64,000 nt of DNA from an uncultured Candidatus Saccharibacteria bacterium (GTDB lineage Bacteria > Patescibacteriota > JABMPQ01 > JAQVVF01), in assembly GCA_964574655.1 (NCBI GenBank), contig CAZNOH010000002.1, forward strand, positions 108,596-172,595, given 5' to 3'. Position numbers and translations under genes: made by a program. The notes beneath the pieces are model-generated. The model was not told the DNA's origin. It made no database searches and saw nothing but the letters and a program-made list of their open reading frames with translations. Position 1 is the first letter of the stretch. Each line of letters begins with the position of its first letter. Positions 2,417-57,886 of the stretch are shown here, in pieces.

Positions 2417-2803
2417 TTGACAAAAATATTTGCAAGCATAGCGATCTGCGCAATACTAGTATTATGTGTTGCTCCAGTTTTGGCTGCTCCAGCAAGATCA
2501 AATCCTGGTGATTCAGGACCGCAGAATGCTTTGGAAAACCTTAGAAATGAAGCCAATTATACCACCACTGATTTAATAACATTCATTGGTAGAATCATTA
2601 AATGGGTATTGGGAATAATCGGTGTAGTTATGATTGCTTTATTCGTTTACGGCGGTGTTACATACGCAACTTCAGCTGGTTCTGAAGAAAAAATTGAGAA
2701 TGGTAAGAAAATTATGGTTTACACAATCATTGGTGTTATCATAATTGCTTTGGCATATGTTCTGACAGACTTCATTATTTCAGCTTTATTCCCAACATTC
2801 TAA
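2417..2803 (+). CDS. VirB2/TrbC-like T4SS pilin-module protein (probable TTG start after a strong SD)
   Basis: SD aaagggggtga is followed by in-frame TTG at 2417. Signal peptide LTKIFASIAICAILVLCVAPVLA. Motif VYGGVTYATSAGSEEKIENGKKIMVYTIIG. The track ORF starting at 2351 is probably over-extended. Confidence 0.65.
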   Translation: MTKIFASIAICAILVLCVAPVLAAPARSNPGDSGPQNALENLRNEANYTTTDLITFIGRIIKWVLGIIGVVMIALFVYGGVTYATSAGSEEKIENGKKIMVYTIIGVIIIALAYVLTDFIISALFPTF

Positions 2804-2832
2804 GGCATAATAAAAATATATTTTTATTCAAG

Positions 2833-2868
2833 ACAGGCCACTATCAATTTAGCGAGCCTGTTTTTATT
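2833..2868 (+). terminator. intrinsic terminator hairpin (acaggc...gcctgt plus T-run) after the pilin array
   Basis: Stem 2833-2838 / 2856-2861 followed by ttttatt. Confidence 0.5.
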
Positions 2869-2988
2869 ATGGTAAAATATAATACGAATACGAGTACGAA
2901 TGATGCGAATGATACAAATTACGAATCGACGCATTCGTAATTCGCAATATTCGCATTATTCGTATTGTCATTCGTATTATATTTAGAC
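2869..2988. repeat. intergenic palindromic element, tacgaat/attcgta word subfamily
   Basis: aatacgaatacgagtacgaatgatgcgaatg...acgaatcgacgcattcgtaattcgcaatattcgcattattcgtattg. It shares ttcgcattattcgta and the terminal cattcgtattat with the copies at 32420-32556 and 57887-58020. Confidence 0.8.
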
Positions 2989-4650
2989 ATGTTCAAAAAA
3001 CAGCCCATAATATTAGCAATGGCCATAATTATTTACGTAGCATTTTTCACAATGTTATGTTTTTTGAAATACGACAATTTTTTATATCAAGAATTAGATT
3101 TAGGCATAATTAATCAAGTTTTTTACAATTTAGCAAACAATATTTCATTTTACTCGGCAATACAAAATCAAAGCTATCTTGGCGACCATTTTTCGCCAAT
3201 CATCATTATATTATTGCCATTTTATTATTTTTTTCAAAGTCCAAAAACATTATTGATTTTGCAGACTATTATTTTAAGTTTAGCAGCAATTCCAATCTAT
3301 CTGATTGCAAAAGAAAAACTCAAAAACAAAAATCTAGCACTAATTGCCGGTCTAATTTTCTTAGCTAATCCAGCATTGCATAGCGTTAATTTATATGAGT
3401 TTAGTTTTTTGTCTTTTGCCGTTTTTTTATTGCTAGTTACATATCATTCATTCCAGAAGAAAGTGTTTTCTTATTTTCTTGTTTTCTTATTGCTATGTTT
3501 GCTAGTTCGTGAAGATCTCGCTCTAATTATATTCATGTTTGGAATCTATGCTTTATTAAAAAAACGCCAACTAAAATGGATTCTGCCACCAATGATTATA
3601 AGCATTATTTACTTTATTTTAAGTTTAAAAATAATTAGTTATTTTAATGTTGATAATAGTTACAAATTTATAATTCACTATTCATGGCTGGGGAATAGCA
3701 TCAGGGATTTATTCATTAATTTTTTTCTAAAATTTCCAGATATCTTTTTACACTTTCTAAATTTAGAAAACATAATATTTATTTTATACTTATTAATTCC
3801 AGTTTTTTTCTTACCAGTTTTTGGAAAAAAGACGCTTATATTTTTTATTCCAATTCTACTCCAATTTGGCTTGGCAAATTCTGGATTTAAAGGCATCTTT
3901 TTTACTCATTATCTATCATTATTTGTTCCATTTATTTTTATATCCGCAATCTATGGTGTTTCTCTAATTCTATCTCCAATACGTCTAATGCCATCTCGAA
4001 TTCAGTCATCAAAGATTTATAAGAAAATTTGTTTTGGTAAAATAAAAATAAATTTAGGCAGAAAAGAATACATTTTAATTTTATTTCTATTAATTTTTAT
4101 AACAATTTCTAGCAATATTGGTTTTAGTCCCTCATACAATTTGCCCAAAAAGCTAATAAAAGTTGATTCAGAAAAAGGTAAAAACAAACAAAATCTAGTT
4201 GATGAAATTCCAAAATGCCGATGCTCTAAAAATTACATTTTAGCCACAAATGATTTCTTGCCAGTCTTATCTAACAACGAAAATTTATACTCAGCTTTTT
4301 ATTTGGTAAAAGGAAAAAAGCAATATTCAAATCAGGATTATGATATTCCAAAATTAAATTATGCTTTAATCAATTATGAGCAATTTATTAAGAGCTGTCA
4401 GAATCAAGAAAATTTATCGCAGAATAAAAACATTTGTAAACAGGCAAAAAAGAGATTAAAAAATGTATTATTGCAAAACAAGCTTTCGCCAAAAAAAATA
4501 ATTGAAAATAATGTTTTATATTCTAGCAATTATCAATCTGAAAAAACATTTCAATCTTTGCAAAAAAAAGAATCAGATATTATCATTAATCTAAGCAAAA
4601 AGAAATATAATGTTATGCTTGACGAATCATCATTAGAAATTGAAAATTAA
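2989..4650 (+). CDS. polytopic membrane protein, DUF2079-like (putative GT-C-type envelope glycosyltransferase)
   Basis: At least 10 hydrophobic segments. N-terminal motifs LDLGIINQVFYNL and YLGDHFSPIIIILLP resemble the DUF2079 family. ATG 2989 is preferred because the upstream TTG start lies inside the palindromic element. Confidence 0.5.
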   Translation: MFKKQPIILAMAIIIYVAFFTMLCFLKYDNFLYQELDLGIINQVFYNLANNISFYSAIQNQSYLGDHFSPIIIILLPFYYFFQSPKTLLILQTIILSLAAIPIYLIAKEKLKNKNLALIAGLIFLANPALHSVNLYEFSFLSFAVFLLLVTYHSFQKKVFSYFLVFLLLCLLVREDLALIIFMFGIYALLKKRQLKWILPPMIISIIYFILSLKIISYFNVDNSYKFIIHYSWLGNSIRDLFINFFLKFPDIFLHFLNLENIIFILYLLIPVFFLPVFGKKTLIFFIPILLQFGLANSGFKGIFFTHYLSLFVPFIFISAIYGVSLILSPIRLMPSRIQSSKIYKKICFGKIKINLGRKEYILILFLLIFITISSNIGFSPSYNLPKKLIKVDSEKGKNKQNLVDEIPKCRCSKNYILATNDFLPVLSNNENLYSAFYLVKGKKQYSNQDYDIPKLNYALINYEQFIKSCQNQENLSQNKNICKQAKKRLKNVLLQNKLSPKKIIENNVLYSSNYQSEKTFQSLQKKESDIIINLSKKKYNVMLDESSLEIEN

Positions 4651-4653
4651 TTT

Positions 4654-6246
4654 ATGTTAAGTAGCATTACGAAAAAAGAATGGCTCGTAGTTTCATTAAT
4701 TGCTTTAATAACAATTACTATTGTTATTGCGCCATATTTATTTGGCTATTTTACTACTCCTCAAAACATGATTTTTACTGGCGTTACTTTTGATCAGGAT
4801 TATTCCTATTTCTCCATGATGGAGCAAGCAAAAGAAGGAAAAATACTATTCAAAAATCTTTATACGTCAGAAGACCATCAGGCAATTTTTTTCAGGCCGT
4901 TGTTTTTATTTATGGGGCTATTTGCAAAATTTTTGCATCTGTCCAATTTTTTTGTTTTCCATTTATTTAAAATAATTTTTGTTGCCATTTTTATATTTTT
5001 GGCTTACAAGTTCATCTCAATCTTCTTTAGCGAAAAAATAAATCGCATAATTTGTTTGATAATTCTTCTATTTTCATCAGGTTTTGGTTTTTTAGGGCAG
5101 AGATTATTTAGTTATCTATCAACAGATCTTTGGATACCAGAATCACAGACCTTTGCTTCATTTTTCACTCAGCCTCATTTTGTTTTATCGCAAATTTTAA
5201 TTCTAGTTTGTTTTATTTGTTTATTAAAGAAAGAGCTTCGTTTTGCTCTCTTGGCAGGTCTGGCAAATTTTATTTTAGGTTTAGAGCATCCATTCGATTT
5301 GCCTGTCACGCTTTTAGTCCCATTTATTTATTTCATAATTTTATTCTTCTGGAAAAAAGAAAACAGAATTATGAATTATCTAATTTATTGCGCTATCTCA
5401 GTCGTACCAGTTATCTATCAATATTGGACAATGAAGATTGAGCCTATTGCCAAAGCCTGGAATGATCAAAACATTTTGAAATCGCCAGAAATTTTAGCCT
5501 GGATAGTCGGTTATGGCATCATCACAATCTTTGCAATTATTGGTTTCTTAAAATTTTTCAAAAATAAAAATAAAAATTTATTATTAATTAATATTTGGGC
5601 AATTGTTAATGTCTGTTTGCTATATTTGCCAGTCAATTTTCAAAGGCGAATGTCTGAAGGCTTGCATATTCCCTTGACTATTTTGGCAACTTTCGGTATT
5701 CTCATGGTTTATAATTTTTTGAATAAAAAAAGCATTAAGCACAAAATTCACACCCATATTCCAAAGATTGCTTTTTTATGGGTAATCGCTTTATCTCTGC
5801 CTTTTAGCAATATAAATCGCGTTGCTAATTATTTCAATAATTATGCTAAAGCAAAAGCATTGCCTTATTATTTCAGCCAGGACTTTTTTCAAGCTACAAA
5901 ATACTTTAACGACAATAAAATATTTGATCAAACAATTTTGGCTTCGCAAAAAAATGGTCCATTCATTTCAGGTCTGACAACAAACAGAGTTTATCTTGGA
6001 TTTGTTTTTCAGACCAAAGATTATTCTATCAAAAAAGATACTGTTGCATGGTTCTTCAAAGATAATCAGAAAATTAAACAAAAACAAGAATTTTTGCAGA
6101 AGAGAAATATCAAATATATCTTGTACGGTCCAGAAGAAAAAAAGCTTGGCAAAATTAATTTAGACAAAAAAGACTTCTTGGAAAAAGTCTATCAGAATGG
6201 TAGTTATGCTATTTACAAGATAAATGACAAAAAAACAAAAACTTAA
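4654..6246 (+). CDS. polytopic membrane protein with a C-terminal soluble domain (GT-C-like glycosyltransferase candidate)
   Basis: Many transmembrane segments followed by a hydrophilic ~150-aa tail. It lies 4 nt after the previous gene. Confidence 0.45.
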   Translation: MLSSITKKEWLVVSLIALITITIVIAPYLFGYFTTPQNMIFTGVTFDQDYSYFSMMEQAKEGKILFKNLYTSEDHQAIFFRPLFLFMGLFAKFLHLSNFFVFHLFKIIFVAIFIFLAYKFISIFFSEKINRIICLIILLFSSGFGFLGQRLFSYLSTDLWIPESQTFASFFTQPHFVLSQILILVCFICLLKKELRFALLAGLANFILGLEHPFDLPVTLLVPFIYFIILFFWKKENRIMNYLIYCAISVVPVIYQYWTMKIEPIAKAWNDQNILKSPEILAWIVGYGIITIFAIIGFLKFFKNKNKNLLLINIWAIVNVCLLYLPVNFQRRMSEGLHIPLTILATFGILMVYNFLNKKSIKHKIHTHIPKIAFLWVIALSLPFSNINRVANYFNNYAKAKALPYYFSQDFFQATKYFNDNKIFDQTILASQKNGPFISGLTTNRVYLGFVFQTKDYSIKKDTVAWFFKDNQKIKQKQEFLQKRNIKYILYGPEEKKLGKINLDKKDFLEKVYQNGSYAIYKINDKKTKT

Positions 6247-8013: not shown

Positions 8014-8838
8014 ACCAATGAGCCATTTTGGAGAAGAATGAAATTTTGGATCTTCGTGTTTAAAGCTAACCTCTACTGGAAATTCCTGTCCGTTGTCCCT
8101 GAAACGAAAGACAATTTTTCGGGTAAGTTCATAATAAGCTCTCAGTTTTTTATTTTCTTCTGCTCTTTCGAAGTCGTCACGAGTAACCGGTTTCTCACCA
8201 TACCATTTTGAAATAAAGCCATGAAAAACGCCGTTGGCAAGAACATCATCTACGGCAACTGTAACAACATAACTAATTTGTTGATCATTATGCAGAACTA
8301 AAGAATCAATTAATTTATCGTGCAGATAAACATCTAAAAAAATACCTTCCCACAAATGAGTTGCATCATTAAATCTATATAGTCTTAACAGTATCATCCT
8401 TACAGCGTTTTCTCCATCAACAACTCGATTAGTAATTTTTTTAATTACACGAACTTTTTCATCGAGAGCTAGACTATGTATCTTATGTCCTTTTTTTACA
8501 TCAGTACTGCCATTTTTCTTCGGATGTGCTTTCTTTTCGACAGGAATATCAAGATAAAGAGCATTATTACCTGCAAATACCCCCTTTGAATCAAAAACAA
8601 AAGCATCTGCGTGCACTCCGCAAACATCATTTGGAATAAGAATATAATCTGTTACCGCTTCTCCTGTCTCATCTGTCGTAATCGTTGTTACAATTTTACC
8701 ATCAATTTTTATAATCACATCTTTATTTACACAGGGAATGCCTTCGTCAGAAAACAGTAACACAGACAAATAGATTCTCCACTTTTCCAGTTGCGAATCC
8801 CATTCGTTTTTTAGATGTCTTAATTGTATTCGCATCAT
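8011..8838 (-). CDS. hypothetical protein, last gene of the GC-rich operon
   Basis: 275-aa ORF with clearly higher GC than its surroundings. It overlaps the upstream gene by 4 nt (ATGA). I see no recognisable motif. Confidence 0.55.
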   Translation of the reverse strand: MMRIQLRHLKNEWDSQLEKWRIYLSVLLFSDEGIPCVNKDVIIKIDGKIVTTITTDETGEAVTDYILIPNDVCGVHADAFVFDSKGVFAGNNALYLDIPVEKKAHPKKNGSTDVKKGHKIHSLALDEKVRVIKKITNRVVDGENAVRMILLRLYRFNDATHLWEGIFLDVYLHDKLIDSLVLHNDQQISYVVTVAVDDVLANGVFHGFISKWYGEKPVTRDDFERAEENKKLRAYYELTRKIVFRFRDNGQEFPVEVSFKHEDPKFHSSPKWLIG

Positions 8839-9950: not shown

Positions 9951-10118
9951 TTCTCCACCTCCTCTTTGGATTTGGTTGTAAAAGGACGATCAGTAATTGA
10001 CAGCGTATCATAATGGTTATTAATTATTTTGTCAACATTTACGAACGCATTTATATTCATTTTCCATAAAAAAACAGGTCAGTGACTCGCTTTCGCAAGT
10101 TTGACCTGTCAAAGAACG

Positions 10119-11039
10119 TCAATAAACAACATATTCAATGGCGAAGCCTCCGGAATTATCCTCCCACCACTCGGGATGGAAGTGATTCTCCCTGTCAGCT
10201 GTCGCCTCATTTACGGTCATAAGAATGTTGGCATCCTCGTTACCTGCATTTGCGACTTCACAGCCGTTTCCGCAGTACTGCCAAGGCCCAGGATTAACCT
10301 TGACACACAACGCTAGCCAACTTCCTCCGCATCTATACTGTCTGCCGTCTCGAAGCCAGAGCGGAGGATCAATTCCCCTTGGTCCGCTATTCAAGTCAGC
10401 CATCAAATCCCTTACCTTGCCACTTGCGCTGATCTTCATCTTCTGACCAGCCTTGAGCTTCATTGGCAAGGTAATGCCAGCGTAGTTGGGAGCTACGAAT
10501 GTAGTCTCCTCTCCAGGCTCATGCATCATCTGCTGGAACGGCGAAGGTTGAAGATTGAGACCCTTCTTTTCCAGTTCTTCTCTGCCGCCCTCTCCTTGAA
10601 CCAGTTCTGTTCCATCTTCGGAGCAGAATTTCGTGCCAAGAGAGAACTCTCTTCCGCACATTGGACAAACGGCTTTCACCGATTTCCCAGTCTTAGTATC
10701 AAAGAGTTGCCCCTTGCCCGAGGCAATGGAGACAGGCTTAATGAATGAATAGGGCAGGAAGAACTTGGAAATGCCGATCAAGCAATAGAAGCAGACCGCA
10801 ATCACCACGCCAGTCTTGATATAAGTCTGAGTGATGATCAGGTGCTTCAGAAAAAAATAGACGACGCCGAAGCAGAACAGGAACCCGATTGGTCCAGCCA
10901 GATAGCTGAACCACGAGCCCTTGCCAGTCTGCCAGTCAACAATCGCAACAATAACACGCAATACAATCAAAACCAGAATTGCTGCAACGAAGAGCAGGCC
11001 TTTAGCCTGGCTTCGTTGCTTTTTTGTCATCTTGGCCAT
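10119..11039 (-). CDS. membrane protein (3 TM) with a central zinc ribbon (CPMCGREF...CSEDG) and a Cys/Trp-rich C-terminal domain
   Basis: The N-terminus has hydrophobic helices and the middle has a CxxC-x11-CxxDG ribbon. GC elevated. Confidence 0.55.
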   Translation of the reverse strand: MAKMTKKQRSQAKGLLFVAAILVLIVLRVIVAIVDWQTGKGSWFSYLAGPIGFLFCFGVVYFFLKHLIITQTYIKTGVVIAVCFYCLIGISKFFLPYSFIKPVSIASGKGQLFDTKTGKSVKAVCPMCGREFSLGTKFCSEDGTELVQGEGGREELEKKGLNLQPSPFQQMMHEPGEETTFVAPNYAGITLPMKLKAGQKMKISASGKVRDLMADLNSGPRGIDPPLWLRDGRQYRCGGSWLALCVKVNPGPWQYCGNGCEVANAGNEDANILMTVNEATADRENHFHPEWWEDNSGGFAIEYVVY

Positions 11040-11059
11040 TTCATCCTCCCATATGTTTG

Positions 11060-11695
11060 TCAGCCTGTGATTTTATCCAGTTTATCGCAGAACCAATCCC
11101 AGCCACGCTTGAGCTTGCCAGGACCGGACTTTTTCTTGGGGCAGGGCTCTTCTTCTTCAGACTCCGACGGAGCCTGATCAGAACAGGTCGGCACCTGCTT
11201 TTCAGCTTCTGCTTCAGGCTCTGCCCCTGCCCCTGCCTTGATCTTGGCTTTCGCCGGGGTCTTGGCTCTCGGCTTTGCCTTAGACTCAGTAGGAGTCTTC
11301 TTCTTTCTGCCCTTGCCACCACCAGCCGGTGGGGTAGCAGCAGCCGCGTGAGCGGGTGCAGCAGCGGGAGCAGCCGGAGCGCGAGCAGGCGCAACAACCG
11401 GAGCCGGAGCAGCAGGAGCTACACCCGGACGAGCCGGGCGAGCTGCCACGCGCACCGGAACCGGTGCATCATCGTCGTCATCATCATCGTCGTCGTCAAT
11501 CACAACACCGCCACGCGGTGCAACGACCGGAGCCGCAACCACCAATGCATCCAAATCACCCAAATCCAAATCGCCAGCCGCAGGCTCTGGTGCATCAACG
11601 ACAGCATTACGCTTGTCGCCATTGCAAACCGGACAAATAAAACCACCTCTAAAATCAACATCTGAACCACAAATAGGGCATTGTTCACGTGCCAT
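11060..11695 (-). CDS. zinc-ribbon protein with a poly-Asp run (10 D), an Ala/Pro-rich region and a Lys-rich region; first gene of the GC-rich operon
   Basis: The start ATG at 11693-11695 is preceded by AGGAGGAG. N-terminal CPICGSDVDFRGGFICPVCNG. DDDDDDDDDD is encoded at about 11468-11497. Very GC-rich, GCC/CCG/GCG codons. The track's 11060..11875 version is over-extended. Confidence 0.6.
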   Translation of the reverse strand: MAREQCPICGSDVDFRGGFICPVCNGDKRNAVVDAPEPAAGDLDLGDLDALVVAAPVVAPRGGVVIDDDDDDDDDDAPVPVRVAARPARPGVAPAAPAPVVAPARAPAAPAAAPAHAAAATPPAGGGKGRKKKTPTESKAKPRAKTPAKAKIKAGAGAEPEAEAEKQVPTCSDQAPSESEEEEPCPKKKSGPGKLKRGWDWFCDKLDKITG

Positions 11696-11753
11696 GTTTC
11701 TCCTCCTCGTATTGTGAAGTTTCTTGCCAAATCTTGGACTTTGTAGTATAGCA

Positions 11754-11782
11754 TATGAGCATAAAAAAGTCAATGCAAAATA
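11754..11782 (-). promoter_or_regulatory. near-consensus sigma70 promoter (TTGACT-N17-TATACT) for the GC-rich operon
   Basis: The reverse complement reads ttgacttttttatgctcatatgctatact. This puts a TSS about 50 nt upstream of ATG 11695. Confidence 0.55.
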
Positions 11783-11875
11783 TGAATTAGGGCTTATTTT
11801 AGGAAAAAAAGCCTCAAAATAGCCAAAAAGACTGGATTTTATTAAAGCTTTGAAGTATACTTTGAATATATTCAA

Positions 11876-12010
11876 AATTCTAAACTCTAAATCCTAAATA
11901 AATCCAAAATTCAAATAACCAAAAATAAGAATATCGCCGAACTTTGAAAATTTGGATTTTGAGTTTTTAATTTGTTTAGAGTTTAGAATTTAGTATTTGG
12001 AGTTTTAAAA
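11876..12010. repeat. intergenic palindromic element, ctaaat/atttag word subfamily
   Basis: ttctaaactctaaatcctaaataaatccaaaattcaaataacc...gaatatcgccgaactttg...ttggattttgagtttttaatttgtttagagtttagaatttagtatttggag. Confidence 0.75.
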
Positions 12011-12014
12011 ATGT

Positions 12015-12097
12015 GCGGACGTGGTGAAATGGCAGACATGCTAGCCTTAGGAGCTAGTGGGGTAAAACCCATGAGAGTTCGAGTCTCTCCGTCCGCA
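12015..12097 (+). tRNA. tRNA-Leu (anticodon UAG), class II with a long variable arm
   Basis: Acceptor GCGGACG/CGTCCGC plus discriminator A. Anticodon arm CUAGC-CUUAGGA-GCUAG gives UAG. Variable arm ggg-gtaaaa-ccc. T arm GAGAG-TTCGAGT-CTCTC. CCA is not encoded. Confidence 0.85.
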
Positions 12098-12272
12098 AAT
12101 AAATTAACATAGAGTTTTCCGCAGAACCCTGCCTTCATGGCAGGGCGAGTCTCTTCCTCGGCAACTAATAATTCTCAAATCGAAAATTATTAATGAGTTC
12201 AAATATCAAATTATAATTATCAAAAGAGAAGCGATTAACGCTTCTTTTTCTTGCTCAATAAATTTTACGATT

Positions 12273-31597: not shown

Positions 31598-31897
31598 ATG
31601 TCAATCTTTTCTCTCAAAGATCTTCTGCCCTTATCAATTAATAGAGCAGGCATTGGAACTCAGCTTGAGGCATCTCAGGTTTGTTTAACTTGCGAAAAAT
31701 TAATTAAAGAATTAGATCAAAAAATTTTTCAAGAAATAAAACCAGTCAGTTTCAAAAACAAAACTTTAACAATCCAAGTTCCGTCATCTTCCCACGCCCA
31801 AGAATTATTAATGCATCAACATATCATCAAACAAAAAATCAACCAGCATTTTAAGAAACAGCTGGTTGATCGTATAAGTTATAAAATTAATTTCTAA
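31598..31897 (+). CDS. DUF721-family protein (recF-associated)
   Basis: Immediately downstream of recF. About 100 aa with the LTCEKL...KTLTIQVPSSSHAQEL pattern typical of DUF721. Confidence 0.55.
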   Translation: MSIFSLKDLLPLSINRAGIGTQLEASQVCLTCEKLIKELDQKIFQEIKPVSFKNKTLTIQVPSSSHAQELLMHQHIIKQKINQHFKKQLVDRISYKINF

Positions 31898-32020
31898 TTT
31901 TCAATTTCTAATTTCTATTAAATTTTTAATGCTTAAAGTCCTAAACCATACGACGAATAGGTTTAAAAATTGATTCATTAGTAATTTAATAGAAATTTAA
32001 AATTAAAAATTAGAAATTCA
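31898..32020. repeat. intergenic palindromic element, ttctaattt/aaattagaa subfamily (centre ccatacgacgaatagg)
   Basis: ttctaattttcaatttctaatttctattaaatttttaatg...cattagtaatttaatagaaatttaaaattaaaaattagaaa. Confidence 0.75.
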
Positions 32021-32356
32021 TTAGATCTTTACCATTTTCTCAATATTAACAATAAAAATAGTTGCTCCTCCAATTCTGATCTTTGTTGCTTCATCAACAT
32101 TCATTCCGCTTTCCATGCCATGAGTCATGTAGGCTGGAGCAGAGATTACTTTTTCTTTTGTTTCGCAGTTTTTCTTGATGATCTCTAAAACTTTATCAAT
32201 CTTTCCGTCCTCAACGCCAACTAAAAAAGTGGTGTTTTTTTTCTCTAAAAATCCGCCTTCTGAAGTCAATTTAGTCAAACTAAAATTTCCAGCAACTAAT
32301 TCTGACTTCAATTTTTTCGTATTTTCTTTAGGAGTGATTATTACTAATAGTTTCAT
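32021..32356 (-). CDS. darA: cyclic-di-AMP receptor DarA (PII-like, DUF970)
   Basis: MKLLVIITPKEN...LTKLTSEGGFLEKKNTTFLVGVEDGKIDKVLEII...IGGATIFIVNIE. I align this by eye to B. subtilis DarA ([36 protein letters not shown]...GGATVFVLPV). Confidence 0.75.
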   Translation of the reverse strand: MKLLVIITPKENTKKLKSELVAGNFSLTKLTSEGGFLEKKNTTFLVGVEDGKIDKVLEIIKKNCETKEKVISAPAYMTHGMESGMNVDEATKIRIGGATIFIVNIEKMVKI

Positions 32357-35090: not shown

Positions 35091-36071
35091 ATGTTCAATT
35101 TTAATGACATTCAAATAAATCGCGCGCTTTATCTCATAAAGAAATCTCAAAATATTTTGATTATTTGTCATCGCAAGCCAGATGCTGACACTATTGGATC
35201 AGCATTGGCTTTAGGTAATATTTTGGAAAAACAAAATAAGAAAATTGAATATGCCTGCCAGGATCAAATTCCAGCCAAGTTTTTTTTCTTAAAAAATGCA
35301 AACAAAATAAAAAAAATTGATGAGATCTTAAAGGATTTTATTAATTATCAATTGCTGATTACTTTAGATTGCGGAAGCTTTGAACAAACAGGACTTCATA
35401 ATTTTTTCAGCATCAACGAATTTAAAACGCCAATTATAAATATTGATCATCATCATGACAATCCACATTTTGGCAGATTAAATATTATTAAAGCTAATGC
35501 TTCTTCAACTTCTGAAATTGTTCATAATTTTCTAGTAAAAATGAATGTTGATTTGGACAAGAATATTTCAACCAGTTTATTGAGTGGAATTTTTGCAGAC
35601 ACCGATAGTTTTAAAAATCCCAATACTTCTCATCACACTTTGAAAACTACATCCAGTCTTTTAGCTTCAGGCGCCAATCTAAAAGAAATTACAAAAAACA
35701 CTTTGCAAGATAAATCTTTGTCAACACTCAGACTTTGGGGTAAAATATTATCAGAAATAAAAAAGAATAAAACTTTCGGTATTGTTTACGCAGTCATTAT
35801 CAAAAAAGATTTGCAAGAATGTAATGCCAAGTCAGAAGATCTCGAAGGCATAGCAAATTTTTTGAATTCTATTCCTGATGTCAAAGCCTCATTAGTTTTA
35901 TCAGAAAATGAAAAAGGCGAAATCAAAGGTTCTCTTAGAACCTTGCATGATTATATTGATGTTTCCAAATTAGCGCGCAGTTTAGGAGGAGGAGGACACA
36001 AGAAGGCAGCAGGTTTTACAATTCCTGGCAGATTAATTAAGCAGGATAATGAGGTTAAGATAATAATTTAA
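35091..36071 (+). CDS. nrnA: DHH-family phosphoesterase NrnA (nanoRNase / pAp phosphatase)
   Basis: DHH motifs (ICHRKPDADTIGSALAL, DHHHDN) and a DHHA1 GGGGH motif (LGGGGHKKAAGFT). Confidence 0.75.
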   Translation: MFNFNDIQINRALYLIKKSQNILIICHRKPDADTIGSALALGNILEKQNKKIEYACQDQIPAKFFFLKNANKIKKIDEILKDFINYQLLITLDCGSFEQTGLHNFFSINEFKTPIINIDHHHDNPHFGRLNIIKANASSTSEIVHNFLVKMNVDLDKNISTSLLSGIFADTDSFKNPNTSHHTLKTTSSLLASGANLKEITKNTLQDKSLSTLRLWGKILSEIKKNKTFGIVYAVIIKKDLQECNAKSEDLEGIANFLNSIPDVKASLVLSENEKGEIKGSLRTLHDYIDVSKLARSLGGGGHKKAAGFTIPGRLIKQDNEVKIII

Positions 36072-36202
36072 AATCCTAAATCCTAAACTCTAAATTCTAA
36101 ATAAATTCAAATTACAAAATTAAAAATTCAAACAACGACGATTTTGTATTTTGGATTTTAAATTTATTTAGAATTTAGTATTTAGAGTTTAGAATTTAAT
36201 TT
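36072..36202. repeat. intergenic palindromic element, ctaaat/atttag subfamily (centre caaacaacgacgattttg)
   Basis: aaatcctaaatcctaaactctaaattctaaataaattcaaattacaaaat...attttgtattttggattttaaatttatttagaatttagtatttagagtttagaattt. Confidence 0.75.
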
Positions 36203-41436: not shown

Positions 41437-41567
41437 AAAAATAACTCGCTAATAGTTTGCGAATATTTGCTAATCTTTTGCTAATAAAGTTTATTTCATG
41501 GTCATTGTCTTTTACTTTATTCGCAAACTATTCGCAAATATTAGCAAATTATTAGCGATCAACTTTT
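41437..41567. repeat. intergenic palindromic element, tagcaaat/atttgcta subfamily
   Basis: It shares tcattgtcttttactttatt and ttagcaaattattagcgat with the copy at 43582-43745. Confidence 0.8.
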
Positions 41568-42359: not shown

Positions 42360-42510
42360 AGAATAAAAATTCTAAATTCTAAATCCCAAACTCTAAATAA
42401 ATTCAAAATTTAAATTTCCAAAAGTTTCAAAAATTTAGAATTTTGGATTTTATATTTATTTAGAATTTAGAATTTAGTGTTTAGGATTTTTTTTAAAATA
42501 AAAATAATTT
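42360..42510. repeat. intergenic palindromic element, ctaaat/atttag subfamily
   Basis: aaattctaaattctaaatcccaaactctaaataaattcaaaatttaaatttccaaaagtttcaaaaatttagaattttggattttatatttatttagaatttagaatttagtgtttaggatt. Confidence 0.75.
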
Positions 42511-46422: not shown

Positions 46423-46425
46423 ATA

Positions 46426-46513
46426 TTCTACCTGGCTTTAGCCAAGGGGTTAAAGGACTTTAGTCCTCGTTGGAGCTAAAGCTCCACGACCCTTCGGCTA
46501 AAGCCGAGTAGAA
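46426..46513. other. structured element: four consecutive mini-hairpins with cTTTAg/cTAAAg loops, enclosed by the outer stem ttctac/gtagaa
   Basis: ggctttagcc, ggactttagtcc, ggagctaaagctcc, cggctaaagccg. Hairpins 1/4 and 2/3 are mutual reverse complements. Confidence 0.6.
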
Positions 46514-46524
46514 AAATTTACATT

Positions 46525-51870: not shown

Positions 51871-53286
51871 ATGTTAAAAATAGACCCAAACAATTTAAAA
51901 AATCCACAAGAATTTGAAAAAATATCCAAAGAAGCGCAGGAGTGCGATCATTTTAATTATGTTGGTGAATATGGAGTGAGATCTTATCAAACAATGTTAG
52001 CAATTGACGAAGCTCTAGAAAAAAATCCTCAATTCAAAAATGAAGACCAAGAACTATACAAAAAATATTGCGATCTTAGTCTTTATCTAAAATTTCATAA
52101 TTTAGAACGCTTACCAGAAGATAATAATGTTTTAGAATTACTAGAAAAAAATTTTTGTGATGCTTTAAAGAAAAATCTTAATTTAGAAGAATGGCTCAGA
52201 GCAAAAGTAATGATGATCGGTCTTCCTTTTCGAAATGAATTTCTCGAAAAGACACTTTCTGCCATCAAAAAAAATCTGCAAAAAATTGGCACAAAAAACA
52301 TTATAATTAGCAATAAAGAAGTAGAACCAACTATTCAAAATTGGATCAAAGATTATGAATATACTTCTGAGCCAGGCATTCACTCTTTGCTTGAACGCAA
52401 TGACTATTTTATCCATTCTAAAAACGTTAGAAATTTAAATGAAGATGAAAAAAAGCAAATCAAAATGCTTTTGCAACTTTATGATAAATTACATCTGAAA
52501 GTAACTGATATTGGAGGCTTGGGGAGCTATCCGCCGTCAATGTACGGCATTGATCTAAAAAAGCCAGTTGCAGTCGAAGATTTTACTACTAAAGAATTAC
52601 AAAAAGTTAACAAATCAGTTCAGGAATCAGCCGGAACTGTTCATCCCATTCCTTTTCCAACTTCAAAAACAGAAAAACGAGAAAAAATGCTAGCTGAAAA
52701 CAAAAAAGAAGCTGAAAAAGCAATGCAAGGCGCTGTTGATATAAAAAAGCTAGAAGCACAAGAGCCAGGAAATAAATTTATCACGTCTTTGAAAAAAATT
52801 GGCAAACCAAGAAAAAAAAATGAAAAAATAAAAACAGCAGAAACAAAAGTAATTAAAGCAGTGCCTGAAAAAGAAGTTGTTGAGGAAATTTCAAAACCAG
52901 AAACAGAGCTACCAAATCCTCCTAAAAAAGTTTTTCATAAAGAACACAAAGTTTTAACATCCTCAAAGCCAGTTTCAGCAGAAATCAGCAAAATTAAAAA
53001 TATAAATTTGCTAGAATTCAAAAAACTTGGCGCAACAGCAAAACAAGCTGCTCAAGTTTTGCTTAACAATATCCGCGAAGTTGCGAAAACTCATGATGAG
53101 CGAAAAGCAGCGCAAGAAAATTTTATGAAAAGTCCTTTATTCAAATTATACGAAGCAATCGCAAATCAAAGCACATCAGAAAAGAAATCAGTCAGTCAGA
53201 TAGCAGAGGATAGAAAAAAACAAGGAACAGAGTTTCTTACTGAAGACGAATATATTGCGGTTAAAAGCATCAGTAAGCTAATTTAA
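51871..53286 (+). CDS. hypothetical charged (K/E-rich) protein in the T4SS-like cluster
   Basis: 471-aa ORF, no recognisable motif. Confidence 0.5.
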   Translation: MLKIDPNNLKNPQEFEKISKEAQECDHFNYVGEYGVRSYQTMLAIDEALEKNPQFKNEDQELYKKYCDLSLYLKFHNLERLPEDNNVLELLEKNFCDALKKNLNLEEWLRAKVMMIGLPFRNEFLEKTLSAIKKNLQKIGTKNIIISNKEVEPTIQNWIKDYEYTSEPGIHSLLERNDYFIHSKNVRNLNEDEKKQIKMLLQLYDKLHLKVTDIGGLGSYPPSMYGIDLKKPVAVEDFTTKELQKVNKSVQESAGTVHPIPFPTSKTEKREKMLAENKKEAEKAMQGAVDIKKLEAQEPGNKFITSLKKIGKPRKKNEKIKTAETKVIKAVPEKEVVEEISKPETELPNPPKKVFHKEHKVLTSSKPVSAEISKIKNINLLEFKKLGATAKQAAQVLLNNIREVAKTHDERKAAQENFMKSPLFKLYEAIANQSTSEKKSVSQIAEDRKKQGTEFLTEDEYIAVKSISKLI

Positions 53287-53458
53287 AATTTCGAATTTTA
53301 AATTTTAAATAAATTTCGAAATAAGAATTTTAAAATTCGTTGCAGAGTTTTAAGCTACTGGTTCTGCATAAAATGGTAAAGAAGCAAGTAGTAGTCATTA
53401 GAAATTAAAGAATTTAAAATTTATTTTAAATTTGAAATTATAAATTTGAAATTAACGT
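53287..53458. repeat. intergenic palindromic element, aaattt/ttaaaat word subfamily
   Basis: aaaatttcgaattttaaattttaaataaatttcgaaataagaattttaaaattcg...attagaaattaaagaatttaaaatttattttaaatttgaaattataaatttgaaatt. Confidence 0.7.
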
Positions 53459-53893
53459 ATGCAATACCCAATTCCACAATTTGTTGAAATAGAGGACCAG
53501 ATTATTGGCCCGCTCACTCTCAAACAGTTTTTCTTTTTGCTTGGTGGTGGAATATTTCTATTGATTTCCTGGTCTTTTGTTGATCTCGCATTATTTATTT
53601 TTTTAGCAGTTATCGTTGGTTTCATAGTCGTGCCATTGGCTTTTGTCAAGCCATACGGACGTCCGTTGACAAATTATCTTTCCGCAGTTTTTAAATATAT
53701 ACTTGGCCCAAAGATACTAGTCTGGCACAAAAGTAGCAGAGCTCCAAGAGTAAAAGCTTATGATCTTGCAAATAAAAAGAAAGGTCCTGAAAAAATTACA
53801 ATCGGCGAAAAAAAGTATACACCGAGCAGTATTCACCGATTGGCAAGGCAATTAGATTTTAAGACAGTAATGAGCGAAGACGAAAAGAAGTAA
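53459..53893 (+). CDS. PrgI-family / VirB3-like small T4SS membrane protein
   Basis: MQYPIPQFVEIEDQIIGPLTLKQFFFLLGGGIFLLI, then a second TM. This matches the PrgI-family N-terminal signature and precedes VirB4. Confidence 0.55.
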   Translation: MQYPIPQFVEIEDQIIGPLTLKQFFFLLGGGIFLLISWSFVDLALFIFLAVIVGFIVVPLAFVKPYGRPLTNYLSAVFKYILGPKILVWHKSSRAPRVKAYDLANKKKGPEKITIGEKKYTPSSIHRLARQLDFKTVMSEDEKK

Positions 53894-53956
53894 TTTTAAA
53901 TTTCGAATTTTAAATTTTAAATAAATTTTAAAGTTTCTAATTTTAAAATAATATAA
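53894..53956. repeat. short intergenic palindromic element (ttttaaattt words)
   Basis: aattttaaatttcgaattttaaattttaaataaattttaaagtttctaattttaaaat. Confidence 0.6.
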
Positions 53957-54313
53957 ATGCTTAAAGAAAAAGATAAGCAATACGATTTAGAAGAAAGAAC
54001 CGCAAAATTTGCAGAAGGCATAATCGATCTTTGCCAAGGCCTACCGCAAACAGCAATTACTAAGTCAACGATAAGCCAGATAATTCGTTCAAGCTCAAGT
54101 ATCGGCGCAAACTATTGCGAAGCAAACGGCGCAAGCTCAAAAAAAGATTTTAGGAACAAAATATTTATCTGTAAGAAAGAAGCTCAGGAAACACGATATT
54201 GGATAAGAATATTGGCTAAATGTTTACCAAACAAAAAAGAAGACTTGCGAAATCATTGGAAGGAGTGTCAAGAATTAACACTAATTTTTGGTAAAATTGC
54301 ATCAAAGTTATAG
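53957..54313 (+). CDS. four-helix-bundle protein (TIGR02436, 23S-rRNA-IVS-type family)
   Basis: About 118 aa. EERTAKFAEGIIDLCQGLP...IIRSSSSIGANYCEANGASSKKDFRNKIFICKKEAQETRYWIRIL. Confidence 0.7.
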   Translation: MLKEKDKQYDLEERTAKFAEGIIDLCQGLPQTAITKSTISQIIRSSSSIGANYCEANGASSKKDFRNKIFICKKEAQETRYWIRILAKCLPNKKEDLRNHWKECQELTLIFGKIASKL

Positions 54314-54377
54314 CAATTTAAAATTAAGTAATTTGAAATTTAATTAAAATTCGAAATTTTAAATTTAAAATTGAGTA
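54314..54377. repeat. short intergenic palindromic element
   Basis: caatttaaaattaagtaatttgaaatttaattaaaattcgaaattttaaatttaaaattg. Confidence 0.6.
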
Positions 54378-55121
54378 ATGCTTAAAAAAGAAAAAAAAGA
54401 AGAAAAGAAAGTTGAAGTAAAACAAGAAGAAGAAACAATGCTTTCAAGTAAAGCAGCAAAGAAAGAAGAAGAGTCAACTCAGAAATTTTTGAATGTCGCT
54501 GGAATCAGAGATGGAATTATAATTCTAAAAAACAAAGCATTGCGGGCAATAGTGATGTGTTCATCAATTAATTTTGCTTTGATGTCTGAAGATGAACAAA
54601 AAGCTAAGGTTTTTGGCTATCAAGATTTTTTAAATTCATTAAATTTTCCAGTGCAAATCGTTATCCAAACTAGAAAGCTAAACATCGCAGGCTATCTAGA
54701 AAAAGTCAAAGAAGCTGAAAGAATGCAAGACAATGAATTGTTAAGAATGCAGACAGCTGAATACGCTGAATTTATAAAATCAATGGTAGAATTAGGAAAT
54801 ATTACTACTTCTCATTATTATGTTTCAATACCTTATTCTCCAGCTGGAATTGAAGCAACTGAATCAATAATGGATAAAATCAAAGGAATTATTTCGCCAG
54901 CGTCAAAAATAAAAGAAGAACAAGTTGGTTTCCAAAAACAACAAGAGGAGCTTTTGCTTCGCGTAAATACAGTAATCAGCGGACTTGGAGGAGTTGGAAT
55001 TCAATCCGCGCAACTTAATACTCAAGAAGTAGTTGAGCTCTTGTATTCATGGTATAATCCAGATGAAAGCACTACTGAAATACTTGGAGAATTGGAAAAG
55101 CTTAAGATTGAACAAGCCTAA
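54378..55121 (+). CDS. VirB4/TrbE/CagE-family protein, N-terminal domain only (split gene, part 1)
   Basis: FLNVAGIRDGIIILKNKALRAIVMCSSINFALMSEDEQKAKVFGYQDFLNSLNFPVQIVIQTRKL resembles the VirB4 N-terminal (CagE_TrbE_VirB) region. The ORF ends at a stop before the repeat element. Confidence 0.55.
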   Translation: MLKKEKKEEKKVEVKQEEETMLSSKAAKKEEESTQKFLNVAGIRDGIIILKNKALRAIVMCSSINFALMSEDEQKAKVFGYQDFLNSLNFPVQIVIQTRKLNIAGYLEKVKEAERMQDNELLRMQTAEYAEFIKSMVELGNITTSHYYVSIPYSPAGIEATESIMDKIKGIISPASKIKEEQVGFQKQQEELLLRVNTVISGLGGVGIQSAQLNTQEVVELLYSWYNPDESTTEILGELEKLKIEQA

Positions 55122-55244
55122 GAACAATTTTAAATTATAAAATTTTAAAACTAGAAAAACGAAACTAGTCAAAAAATGGTTTTGAAATTAAATATTTAAA
55201 ATTTATTTGAAATTTGAAATTGAAAATTTGAAATTAGCAAAACT
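55122..55244. repeat. intergenic palindromic element separating the two VirB4 parts
   Basis: caattttaaattataaaattttaaaactagaaaaacgaaactagtcaaaaaatggttttgaaattaaatatttaaaatttatttgaaatttgaaattgaaaatttgaaatt. Confidence 0.7.
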
Positions 55245-57080
55245 ATGCAAGATAAAGACTTACCAATCGGTAAAAAAAATATTGAAAATATAAGTCAAGC
55301 CGAGCAAGAAGAGATTCTTAAGGCTGAAGAAATTTACAGAAAGGGTCTGGTTTCGATTCGCGATATTATTGCGCCAAGTGCTTTGCAAGTCAATCCAAAT
55401 TATCTTAAATTAGGTGATAAGTTCGTCAGAACTATATTCATTTTTACTTATCCTCGTTTTGTCAATACTGGCTGGTTTGCTCCAGTCATTAATATGAATA
55501 TTGAAGCTGATATGGCAATGTATATTTCACCTGTTGAATCAGAAAAAATATTAAAAACATTAAAAAATAAAGTAGGACAAATTCAGTCAACTATTGCCGG
55601 AAAACAGGAAAAAGGTGATGTCCGAGATCCAATGCTAGAAACAGCATTAAATGATGTTGAAGAACTTCGTGATCGTTTAATTCAGGGCACAGAAAGATTT
55701 TTCCATTTTGCATTATATATCACTCTTTATGAGAATTCTGAAAAAAAACTAGATAAAACCACCAAAGAAATAGAGGATCTATTAGGTCAAAGACTGATCT
55801 ATTCAAAGCGAGCATTTTTTCAAGCTGAACAAGGATTTAATACCACAACGCCATTAGGTCTTGACGAGCTTGGCGTTCTTAACAATTTTAATACTTCACC
55901 TTTATCAACTAGTTTTCCATTTGTTTCTTCGGAATTGACTTCTGATGAAGGCATTCTTTATGGAATCAACCGCCACAATAATAGCTTGATTTTATTTGAT
56001 CGTTTCTCCTTGCCAAATGCCAATTCAGTAGTATTCGCCACATCTGGTGCTGGTAAAAGTTACGCCGTTAAATTAGAAATATTAAGGTCTTTAATGTTTG
56101 GTACAGAAGTTATAGTCATTGATCCAGAAAATGAATATAAATATTTATGTGAATCAGTCGGCGGAACATTTTTGAAAATGTCTCTAGAGTCAGAATACAG
56201 ATTGAATCCTTTTGATCTGCCATCTGCAATTTCTGGAATGAAAACCAAAGATATTATTCGGTCAGCAGTTATTAATATAAAAGGTTTGCTTAGAATTATG
56301 CTTGGTCGTTTGACAAAAGAAGAAGATGCTTTGCTTGATAGCGCAATTATTCAAACTTACGCCAAAAAAGATATAACTCCAGATTCTGATTTATCAAAAA
56401 TAGAAGTTCCAACAATGAAAGATTTGCAAGAAATTCTTGAAGGCATGCAAGGAGCAGAAGACATTGTTCCAAGAATAAAAAAATATACAGAAGGAACTTT
56501 TGCCGGTCTTTTGAATCAGGCAACCAATGTCCAAATTGACAATCCATTTGTTGTTTTTAGCATTAGAGATTTAGAGGACGAGTTACGTCCAATTGCCATG
56601 TATGTTATTTTAAATCACATCTGGAATATCGTCAGAGCTCAAATGAAAAAAAGAATTCTAGTTGTCGATGAAGCATGGTGGATGATGCAATATGAAGAAT
56701 CAGCCAGATTTATGTATGGCATTGCCAAAAGAGGAAGAAAATATTATCTAGGCACAACAACAATTTCTCAAGATGTTAATGATTTCTTAACATCAGATTA
56801 TGGAAAAGCAATCGTAACAAATTCCGCATTGCAATTGTTATTAAAGCAGTCTCCAGCCTCTATTGATTTATTAAAAAAAACTTTTTATTTAACTGAAGAA
56901 GAAAAATATTTATTATTAGAATCAGATGTTGGTGAAGGAATTTTCTTTGCAGGTTCAAAACATGTTGCAATAAAAATAGTTGCCTCATATTCTGAAGATC
57001 AGATTATTACAACAGATCCAAAACAATTACTAGAGCTAGAACAGGCTAAGAAAAATTACGAAGAAGAGCAAAACGCATAA
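55245..57080 (+). CDS. VirB4/TrbE-family T4SS ATPase, central and C-terminal ATPase part (split gene, part 2)
   Basis: IIAPSALQVNPNYLKLGDKFVRTIFIFTYPRFV, Walker A FATSGAGKSYAV, Walker B ILVVDEAWWMM. Confidence 0.65.
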   Translation: MQDKDLPIGKKNIENISQAEQEEILKAEEIYRKGLVSIRDIIAPSALQVNPNYLKLGDKFVRTIFIFTYPRFVNTGWFAPVINMNIEADMAMYISPVESEKILKTLKNKVGQIQSTIAGKQEKGDVRDPMLETALNDVEELRDRLIQGTERFFHFALYITLYENSEKKLDKTTKEIEDLLGQRLIYSKRAFFQAEQGFNTTTPLGLDELGVLNNFNTSPLSTSFPFVSSELTSDEGILYGINRHNNSLILFDRFSLPNANSVVFATSGAGKSYAVKLEILRSLMFGTEVIVIDPENEYKYLCESVGGTFLKMSLESEYRLNPFDLPSAISGMKTKDIIRSAVINIKGLLRIMLGRLTKEEDALLDSAIIQTYAKKDITPDSDLSKIEVPTMKDLQEILEGMQGAEDIVPRIKKYTEGTFAGLLNQATNVQIDNPFVVFSIRDLEDELRPIAMYVILNHIWNIVRAQMKKRILVVDEAWWMMQYEESARFMYGIAKRGRKYYLGTTTISQDVNDFLTSDYGKAIVTNSALQLLLKQSPASIDLLKKTFYLTEEEKYLLLESDVGEGIFFAGSKHVAIKIVASYSEDQIITTDPKQLLELEQAKKNYEEEQNA

Positions 57081-57217
57081 TGAATTTACAATCTTCAATA
57101 ATCAATTTTCAATAAATTTCCAATTTACAATTTCCAAATCGCGAAAGTTTTTGAAAAATTGATCATTGATAATTTATTGAAAATTGGTAATTGAAAATTA
57201 GAAATTAATTTATAACT
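57081..57217. repeat. intergenic palindromic element, caattt/aaattg subfamily (sister of 491-593)
   Basis: caattttcaataaatttccaatttacaatttccaaatcgcgaaagtttttgaaaaattgatcattgataatttattgaaaattggtaattgaaaattag. Confidence 0.8.
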
Positions 57218-57886
57218 ATGTTCAAAAAATCTTATGTTGTCATTTTAATCGCATTTTTAGCGTTAACAACAACTGCCTTTGGCTGTAAAAAAGCAACGCC
57301 TCCAGCTAATAGTCAGACAGCTAATCAAAATACAAATGTTGTTGCCAACAACACAGCTACGACTGGAAATGAAAACGAATTTCCAATTGTCAATGCCAAT
57401 GAGGTAGCAAATGCAAACATAAATGCCGAGCTAAACATTAATACGCCAGAAAATACTGGCAGTGAAAATATAAATGCAATCGAAAATCAAGGCGAAATAA
57501 AAGTAGAAGAAGATCAAGAAAAAACAGTTTTAGCTCTTGCTTCAAAAATTGCTGAAATCTATGGCACTTTTACCAATAAAGACAAAGAAGCCTACAAGAA
57601 TTTAAAAACAATCAAAACATATTCTACTGACAAAATGAAAAGCTGGATTGATGATCAAGTTGCCAAGCCCATAGATCCAAAAGCCGCTTTCTACGGCGCA
57701 ACAACAAAAACAATCAGCACTGGAATCTCAGATACAAAAGATAAAGAAATGACAGCAATCGTAACCTGCAAAAGAGAAGAAATTACTGCTCAAAACAATA
57801 AGCCAACAGTAAAATATCAAATCTTAAAACTTGAATTTTCTAAAGTCGGAGAAGAATGGAAAGTAAACGGCGCCTATTGGTTATAA
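57218..57886 (+). CDS. lipoprotein (lipobox TTAFG-C) in the T4SS-like cluster
   Basis: MFKKSYVVILIAFLALTTTAFGCKK, an Asn/Ala-rich linker, then a globular domain. Confidence 0.55.
   Translation: MFKKSYVVILIAFLALTTTAFGCKKATPPANSQTANQNTNVVANNTATTGNENEFPIVNANEVANANINAELNINTPENTGSENINAIENQGEIKVEEDQEKTVLALASKIAEIYGTFTNKDKEAYKNLKTIKTYSTDKMKSWIDDQVAKPIDPKAAFYGATTKTISTGISDTKDKEMTAIVTCKREEITAQNNKPTVKYQILKLEFSKVGEEWKVNGAYWL

Follow-up and report, generated by a model that had tools for sequence, protein, structure and literature searches.

We analysed two adjacent open reading frames (ORFs) and the spacer between them in an uncultured Candidatus Saccharibacteria bacterium, using a 64,000-nucleotide stretch of contig CAZNOH010000002.1 (the window). 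ORF1 (54378–55121, + strand, 247 residues) and ORF2 (55245–57080, + strand, 611 residues) are very probably two separate, functional genes of a Patescibacteria type IV secretion system (T4SS), a TrsD-type gene and a short VirB4 gene, which reflect an ancient division of VirB4 whose existing boundary was later entered by a hairpin cassette. A previous sequence-only reading of this DNA had located both ORFs, a 123-nt spacer, a Walker A motif (GAGKSY) and a Walker B motif (DEAW), all of which we confirmed on the + strand. It had offered two explanations. The first, that VirB4 is genuinely made as two polypeptides, as known from some Gram-positive systems, agrees with the combination of a TrsD-type and a TraE/TrsE-type protein, with the boundary in plasmid pSK41, and with the separate ORFs observed at 80 of 80 evaluable loci. 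The second, in which an inserted element divided the gene and translation restarts further on, does not survive comparison, as the gap is 30 nt or less in 61 of these loci and only 5 nt in the related locus L084.

ORF2 encodes a short VirB4-type ATPase

ORF2 matches the Pfam families P-loop_TraG (PF19044, E 3.9e-26), AAA_10 and DUF87, together with part of CagE_TrbE_VirB. Against the NCBIfam model NF045971 (conju_CD1110), it scores 353.6 bits (cut-off 325) across profile positions 171–734 of 752, and on TIGR00929 and the other VirB4 models it scores under their cut-offs. Residues 231–589 match the VirB4 C-terminal domain structure (PDB 4ag5, E 2e-45). The Walker A motif (56046–56063, residues 268–273) and the Walker B motif (56667–56678, residues 475–478) were read from the sequence, and align to the P-loop and to the VVDEAW segment of 4ag5, respectively. 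Judged from sequence, ORF2 is a VirB4-type T4SS ATPase, as indicated by the Walker A and B motifs, the VirB4/TraG-type domain and the one curated cut-off that was passed.

The protein does not contain a complete N-terminal domain. Full-length VirB4 models are matched only from around positions 170–275 onward, with the alignments beginning at 171 of 752 (CD1110), 238 of 792 (TIGR00929) and 276 of 894 (Mbov_0397). On the last of these models, ORF2 residues 13–588 correspond to positions 276–893. The remaining portion of the VirB4 N-terminal domain is found on ORF2 residues 1–230, which include CagE_TrbE_VirB positions 62–191 of 204. The start of ORF2, M(P)QDKDLP, is itself conserved.

ORF1 corresponds to the first part of the VirB4 N-terminal domain

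ORF1 aligns to the region of the full-length models that precedes ORF2. Its residues 27–234 correspond to positions 97–283 of 894 in the NCBIfam Mbov_0397 VirB4 model, and it further aligns to positions 11–137 of 752 in CD1110 and 3–136 of 792 in TIGR00929. A conceptual join of ORF1 and ORF2 aligns unbroken, with residues 27–835 matching Mbov_0397 positions 97–893 and residues 29–809 matching TIGR00929 positions 3–729 of 792.

We used AlphaFold2 to model ORF1 from a 24-sequence alignment, which gave a mean predicted local distance difference test (pLDDT) score of 72, with the core at approximately 80–90. In a Foldseek search with this model, the only significant PDB matches were R388 TrwK/VirB4 chains (E 4.6e-4 to 4e-3, 180–210 columns), and the next fold matches had E > 0.3. 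At the sequence level, phmmer found no match for ORF1 among PDB sequences, and hmmscan of the local Pfam copy gave no convincing match, with TraC_F_IV the best at E 0.023. The precomputed database label PF26593 ("TraC-like") is attached to P0001, which is identical to ORF1, and to all 120 listed homologues. The NCBIfam TrsD/TraD model NF041427 matches ORF1 with E 1.3e-5 (residues 25–149, profile positions 6–140 of 201). In hhalign, the ORF1 family profile aligns to pSK41 TrsD with E 1.6e-4 over 175 columns at 17% identity, relating ORF1 residues 32–228 to TrsD residues 32–217 of 227.

From the collinear NCBIfam matches and the predicted fold shared with TrwK/VirB4, ORF1 is remotely homologous to the VirB4 N-terminus. 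A general relationship of this kind between TrsD and the VirB4 N-terminus is described in the T4SS passages of PMC12102498 (Microb Genom 2025). The sequence-only reading had taken ORF1 for the VirB4 N-terminal domain. This holds for the first part (TIGR00929 positions 3–136 of 792), equivalent to some 200 residues at the start of a full-length VirB4, and not for the rest of the domain, which resides on ORF2 residues 1–230. Thus, ORF1 is only the first part of the N-terminal domain and the break lies inside that domain.

The junction is real and both genes are maintained

ORF1 and ORF2 share one reading frame and the spacer (55122–55244) contains five in-frame stops, including that of ORF1. Four independent assemblies, from separate sequencing runs, contain ORF1 exactly, the spacer base for base, and an identical 161-nt junction. 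Because four independent assemblies reproduce the junction, the stop is not an assembly artefact, an origin that the sequence-only reading had raised as a possible source of error. Relative to the sister genome, L001, the ratio of nonsynonymous to synonymous substitution rates (dN/dS) is 0.05 for ORF1/TrsD and 0.03 for ORF2/VirB4. Because these ratios are so low, both are, by this measure, functional genes held by strong purifying selection.

The two-gene form is ancient

We scanned one genome per species and recovered 80 loci, of which 78 included downstream DNA. With L001 and L003, this gave 80 evaluable loci. The scanned loci span Magasanik-, Uhr-, Morani-, Buchanan-, Falkow- and Nomurabacteria and Saccharimonadia. 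In each of the 80 evaluable loci, the TrsD-like and VirB4-like ORFs are separate and occur in that order. The VirB4-like ORF can lie in any of the three frames relative to the TrsD-like one, and the two are in the same frame in 27 of the 80, the one third expected by chance. The TrsD–VirB4 gap has a median of 6 nt and is 30 nt or less in 61 loci, comprising 10 in which the ORFs overlap or abut and 51 with gaps of 1–30 nt. In 18 related loci a single stop codon alone lies between same-frame ORFs. The ORF at L015 that appeared to be fused contains a TAA at 4637–4639 followed by an ATG at 4643, and is thus two ORFs. Comparison of orthologous loci as fused or split, with or without a spacer, had been the check suggested by the sequence-only reading; with all 80 split and mostly without an element, it points to an ancestral split.

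The protein families show the same pattern. The best 120 ORF1 homologues, down to 37% identity, are stand-alone proteins of 195–352 residues, and all of those aligned stop approximately 20 residues past a conserved YNP motif. A profile search of 1.84 billion representatives gave 4452 ORF1-family matches, 652 of them at E <= 1e-30. Among the best 150 family representatives, 149 are 170–480 residues in length and the other, P0261, is fused.

In the passages of PMC12102498 on T4SS components, 2,272 TrsD homologues are counted in Patescibacteria, 1,664 of which adjoin VirB4, and TrsD next to VirB4 is given as the commonest Patescibacteria T4SS component. According to the same passages, Ca. Southlakia epibionticum cannot do without TrsD, and needs virB4 to grow as an epibiont. 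The TrsD and VirB4 pairing is therefore already known and published. By sequence comparison, the two-gene form of TrsD plus a short VirB4 is ancient and Patescibacteria-wide, and is also present on Gram-positive plasmids.

The records of L005, L008, L009, L011, L016 and many others are titled "uncultured Gammaproteobacteria bacterium" or "Bdellovibrionales", yet hold typical Patescibacteria TrsD–VirB4 loci. These titles look taxonomically wrong.

Comparison with known systems

Upstream of ORF1 lies a gene for a PrgI/VirB3-like small membrane protein (53459–53893, + strand; Pfam PF12666 PrgI, E 1.1e-8), the first member of a conserved PrgI–TrsD–VirB4 trio. PrgI occupies the same position in L001, L003, L091, L093, pJFP838A and pSK41; among the evaluable loci, this position was checked in the annotated ones.

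The staphylococcal conjugative plasmids pSK41 and pGO1 (MPF-FATA, pGO1 subclass) resemble the window in encoding a small VirB3/PrgI-like protein, a TrsD of approximately 230 residues and a VirB4-like ATPase of approximately 670 residues. In pSK41, trsD (227 residues) is separated from TraE (672 residues) by 14 nt, whereas the gap in the window is 123 nt and contains a hairpin. The split point is the same, since ORF2 residue 40 corresponds to TraE residue 36 and the C-termini of ORF1 and TrsD align. ORF2 residues 40–578 align to TraE 36–617 (E 6e-42), whereas similarity between the TrsD proteins is very low (17% identity). Furthermore, the window locus is chromosomal in an epibiont lineage, whereas the pGO1/pSK41 pair is carried on conjugative plasmids. 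Clostridium perfringens pJFP838A encodes PrgI, a 312-residue ORF1-like protein and a 641-residue DUF87 ATPase in the same order. The division is common to the TrsD–TrsE (TraD–TraE) pairs of pGO1/pSK41 and to clostridial and bacillar plasmids.

The Patescibacteria T4SS outlined in the relevant passages of PMC12102498, with VirB4, TrsD, PrgI/VirB3 and VirB6-like components, fits the window; those passages do not describe intergenic spacers or IVP cassettes (see below) inside the operon. Full-length VirB4 proteins, such as R388 TrwK, the CD1110 family and the Mbov_0397 family of a Mycoplasma integrative and conjugative element, are collinear with ORF1 plus ORF2 from end to end. They differ in being one polypeptide, whereas the window encodes two, with the break within the N-terminal domain and not at the boundary between the N- and C-terminal domains.

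The spacer is a later insertion at an existing boundary

The spacer (55122–55244, + strand) forms a degenerate hairpin element with arms at 55126–55149 and 55180–55203. The sequence-only reading had described it as one of a family of inverted-repeat elements. Hairpin potential is indeed present, with a minimum free energy (MFE) of −17.8 kcal/mol (z = −3.2), a value that no dinucleotide shuffle out of 200 reached. The structure is nevertheless weak: the arms are 24 nt long and 75% complementary, only a weak stem of the intervening sequence (IVS) kind can form between these terminal arms, and the final ~40 nt are unpaired, within an unpaired run at 55195–55244. It is also weak beside neighbouring intergenic hairpins, such as that at 57081–57217. 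The spacer contains no ORF and has no similarity to 23S_rRNA_IVP (IVP) genes. A search of 49–62 kb against Rfam at E <= 1 returned no match, and a promoter and terminator scan gave no signal above shuffle expectation. There is no rRNA in the window, and the spacer sits between two protein-coding genes and not in a 23S rRNA helix.

Comparison with close relatives indicates how the spacer arose. The L084 sequence (75% TrsD identity) across this boundary is GCT TAA AAAAC ATG CCT, with a gap of 5 nt. The window junction reads GCC TAA, approximately 118 extra nucleotides, then AAAACT ATG CAA. Because short gaps are the rule and the gap in L084 is 5 nt, the long spacer is a derived insertion into an existing boundary. 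In L001 (94% identity), the TrsD|VirB4 site holds a PF05635 23S_rRNA_IVP gene of 123 residues, and IVP genes occupy this site also in L091 (93%), L093 (88%) and L094 (83%). L095 (78%) contains the start of an IVP-like ORF, after which the contig ends. Thus, an ORF lies inside this spacer in five of five closer relatives (78–94% identity). The right-hand 50 nt of the window spacer (55195–55244) are homologous to the right arm of the L001 IVP cassette (z 6.7, 0 of 2000 shuffles). An early alignment, in which the middle of the spacer appeared to be a 3' remnant of a deleted IVP gene, was rejected after a shuffle test (z 0.8). The most economical reading of these sequence comparisons is that the window spacer would be an ORF-less and partly decayed derivative of an IVP cassette.

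Starts that follow hairpins share (A)AAACT ATG, at 55236–55247 and 57209–57220 in the window and at 6204–6215 and 8538–8549 in L001. This may represent the right end of the element or a local initiation context. No Shine-Dalgarno-like purine run precedes these starts; at ORF2 the context is GCAAAACT ATG.

Hairpin cassettes with and without IVP genes

An IVS-like cassette lies immediately upstream of ORF1 (53894–54377, + strand). It carries the sole IVP gene in the window (53957–54313; four-helix-bundle, S23p-type; Pfam PF05635, E 7e-18) between inverted AT-rich arms at 53894–53956 and 54314–54377. The two flanks pair with an energy of −32.1 kcal/mol, whereas shuffled sequences average −10.9 (z −5.9, 0 of 200 shuffles). 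Downstream of VirB4, a strong ORF-less hairpin (57081–57217, + strand) has 55-nt arms with 80% complementarity and an MFE of −32.9 kcal/mol (z −5.6). The orthologous site in L001 contains an IVP gene (8094–8483), and the arms of the window hairpin resemble the site-B arms of L001 (z 6.1 and 8.4). L001 has IVP cassettes at 4531–5000, 5736–6212 and 8052–8546, and its IVP genes are flanked by inverted arms built from degenerate 6–7-nt repeats, for example AATTTCTAATTTCTAATTC...GAAATTAGAAATT.

IVP genes in hairpin loops between co-directional T4SS operon genes were found in the window and in L001, L045, L047, L037, L057 and L070. Across the fetched loci, 19 IVP-type genes had flanks long enough to test, and in 13 of these the two flanks paired better than in any of 200 shuffles. 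Every IVP gene detected (22 of 22) points in the same direction as the T4SS genes. The IVP genes at the TrsD|VirB4 site of the relatives belong to at least three IVP lineages, and we therefore rejected simple vertical inheritance (orthology) of the site-B IVP genes in favour of repeated insertion or replacement. The cassette after VirB4 in L001 (8040–8560) has 82% nucleotide identity, arms included, to the TrsD|VirB4 cassettes of L093 (1410–1938) and L094 (820–1320), and starts directly 3' of the host gene TAA in all three. Because the same cassette is present at different sites in L001 and in L093/L094, these sequences suggest that cassettes are transferred or copied as complete units from one intergenic site to another.

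More distantly related lineages show analogous occupants of such spacers. The L047 TrsD–VirB4 spacer holds a different four-helix-bundle ORF between inverted arms, and the long TrsD–VirB4 spacers of L055, L028 and L081 contain hairpins. In L045, a Falkowbacteria metagenome-assembled genome (MAG), the spacer at 4646–4837 lacks an ORF and forms a hairpin. Its left arm consists of perfect tandem copies, (CGCATAA)×12, and the same heptamer makes up the arms of the L045 IVP gene (2614–3108), 1.6 kb upstream.

Hairpins are widespread within the window. Approximately 20 of the 34 intergenic regions of at least 100 nt hold long imperfect hairpins (arms of 40–66 nt, z −3.6 or stronger); examples are at 490–594, 2861–2998, 31885–32022, 36071–36197, 41437–41567, 42362–42494, 46423–46524 and the post-VirB4 site described above. 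Repeats of several types (CTAAAT, TTCAAT, ACAAAA and GCGAAT) are found in the arms of these hairpins, and many have a 5' arm that is nearly free of G and a 3' arm nearly free of C. A 31-nt exact run, AAATTTCGAATTTTAAATTTTAAATAAATTT, occurs both in the left arm of an ORF-less hairpin (53274–53459; the run lies within 53274–53316) and in the left flank of the IVP gene (within 53894–53930), approximately 620 nt apart. This shared run connects the two kinds of element, solo hairpin and IVP cassette, inside one genome.

The cassettes resemble the 23S rRNA IVSs of Coxiella and Leptospira, in which complementary terminal arms form a long stem and a PF05635 four-helix-bundle ORF lies in the loop on the transcribed strand (PMC4990558). 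The IVSs of Coxiella, Leptospira and Salmonella are excised by RNase III (PMC4990558), and IVP ORFs also occur inside rRNA insertions of the candidate phyla radiation (PMC11270868). The cassettes differ in lying between protein genes of an operon and not in an rRNA helix, and in having arms composed of degenerate 6–7-nt tandem repeats; in addition, the copy in the window spacer has lost its ORF. In the literature library searched, which was incomplete, we found no description of intergenic IVP cassettes at operon junctions.

We give roughly even weight, for and against, to a broader proposal: the spacer would be a decayed copy from a mobile family of IVS-like hairpin cassettes, with arms of inverted 6–7-nt repeats, with or without an S23p/IVP gene, that inserts beyond rRNA, right after the stop at co-directional stop–start junctions and in the operon orientation. 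The ORF-less hairpins would then be derivatives comparable to miniature inverted-repeat transposable elements, and the cassettes would ride on operon transcripts, possibly to be excised by RNase III.

Two observations concern individual cassettes. In L084, a decaying IVP gene lies upstream of TrsD (5–420), with an in-frame TGA where the relatives have Arg. It has lost its stop codon, leading gene callers to join its tail to TrsD (P0007, 316 residues). In L093, a GC-rich insertion of ~45 nt at 1450–1497, GGGTTGCTACCCGTTGAAAGC..., breaks the AT-rich left arm of the IVP cassette and may be a nested element.

Weighing the explanations

We considered whether a palindromic element had been inserted into a continuous VirB4, splitting the gene so that the downstream part was re-expressed from a new ATG. 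The shared frame, the length of the spacer as an exact multiple of three with hairpin potential, and the abundance of the element family in the genome count in favour of such an event. However, the boundary exists without an element in the 61 loci with short gaps, in L084 (5 nt) and in pSK41 (14 nt), in all three frames, and the shared frame occurs at the chance rate (27/80). Furthermore, the ORF1 C-terminus and the ORF2 N-terminus are the conserved termini of stand-alone families. Because orthologues are split at the same residue without a repeat in between, we regard this account as refuted and its probability as very small. An origin of the stop in sequencing or assembly error, or in a decaying pseudogene, could be suspected in a MAG with an AT-rich, low-complexity spacer prone to assembly errors. 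It has a negligible probability, given the identical 161-nt junction in four independent assemblies, the presence of five in-frame stops instead of one, dN/dS ratios of 0.03–0.05 and the same two ORFs in the sister genome. There is likewise hardly any chance that the ORFs yield a single VirB4 polypeptide through programmed read-through or recoding. The shared frame here and the 18 related loci with a single stop between same-frame ORFs would allow it, but there are five in-frame stops over 123 nt in the window, around two thirds of the loci have the ORFs in different frames or overlapping, and ORF2 has its own conserved start, M(P)QDKDLP.

The spacer hairpin might also act in regulation or RNA processing and set the ratio of TrsD to VirB4, for example as an RNase III site, by stabilising the mRNA or through attenuation, which would be compatible with our explanation of the two genes. 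Similar hairpins in approximately 20 of the 34 longer intergenic regions of the window, the cleavage of IVS stems of like architecture by RNase III (PMC4990558) and the constant co-orientation of cassettes with the operon are consistent with this. Against it, the site is empty or near-empty in most lineages, its content varies among close relatives (different IVP lineages or no ORF), the hairpin is weak here with a left arm that is not conserved, and there is neither a terminator- or promoter-like signal above chance nor an Rfam family match. We consider a regulatory role possible but rather unlikely.

Several points weigh against the reading of two anciently separate genes with a later cassette. 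The existence of one fused representative, P0261, shows that fusion is possible, and the very first event may have been either fission or fusion. In this 797-residue TrsD–VirB4 protein, the only fusion among the best 150 representatives, the ~25 residues with which VirB4 usually begins are absent from the junction; it may have arisen by secondary fusion or through a sequencing artefact. The assignment of ORF1 to the narrow TrsD family comes from remote homology, synteny and the precomputed Pfam label. The score of ORF1 on the NF041427 TrsD model (25.1 bits) is far under the cut-off of 200, the hhalign probability for ORF1 against pSK41 TrsD is only 51%, and the PF26593 label was not reproduced in hmmscan of the local Pfam copy, from which the model may be missing. 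In addition, the left arm of the spacer does not match the L001 cassette above chance (z 1.3, shuffle test), and we infer the physical interaction of TrsD with VirB4 by analogy.

Proposed mechanism and implications

In our explanation, the VirB4 N-terminal domain is divided between the two proteins: ORF1 supplies its initial ~200 residues, and ORF2 the remainder together with the RecA-like ATPase domain. By analogy with the R388 structures, in which the covalently joined N-terminus of TrwK plays this part, and with the cited literature, TrsD may dock in trans on the N-terminal region of the VirB4 hexamer and so connect the ATPase with PrgI/VirB3 in the membrane. The TrsD stop and the VirB4 start nearly abut in most lineages, an arrangement suggestive of coupled translation. 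In the sub-lineage of the window, this stop–start junction would later have been colonised by an IVS-like hairpin cassette, probably uncoupling the genes such that ORF2 initiates alone. The spacer widens an existing separation of the two genes and did not cause it.

The pair should be annotated as TrsD plus VirB4 (TraE type) and not as a disrupted VirB4 pseudogene. The locus then counts as an intact Patescibacteria T4SS, a system that is indispensable for the epibiotic lifestyle according to PMC12102498. By this comparison, a tightly coupled stop–start junction in an essential operon tolerates insertions of 120 to 500 nt, with both genes still under strong purifying selection. The split itself is known, and the mobile IVS-like cassettes and their ORF-less derivatives are the part of greater interest. 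IVS-type S23p/IVP cassettes, described mainly within rRNA genes so far, appear here as mobile occupants of operon junctions, and would account for the genome-wide inverted-repeat elements noted in the sequence-only reading. Sites at which a cassette is present or absent provide a tractable set for the study of IVS movement and of the role of the S23p protein.

Elsewhere in the window, the region 10001–12272 has a GC content of 0.48, against approximately 0.32, with overlapping ORF calls and a tRNA-Leu gene at 12014–12098. A 397-nt intergenic stretch within it folds with an MFE of −106.6 kcal/mol (z −5.3).

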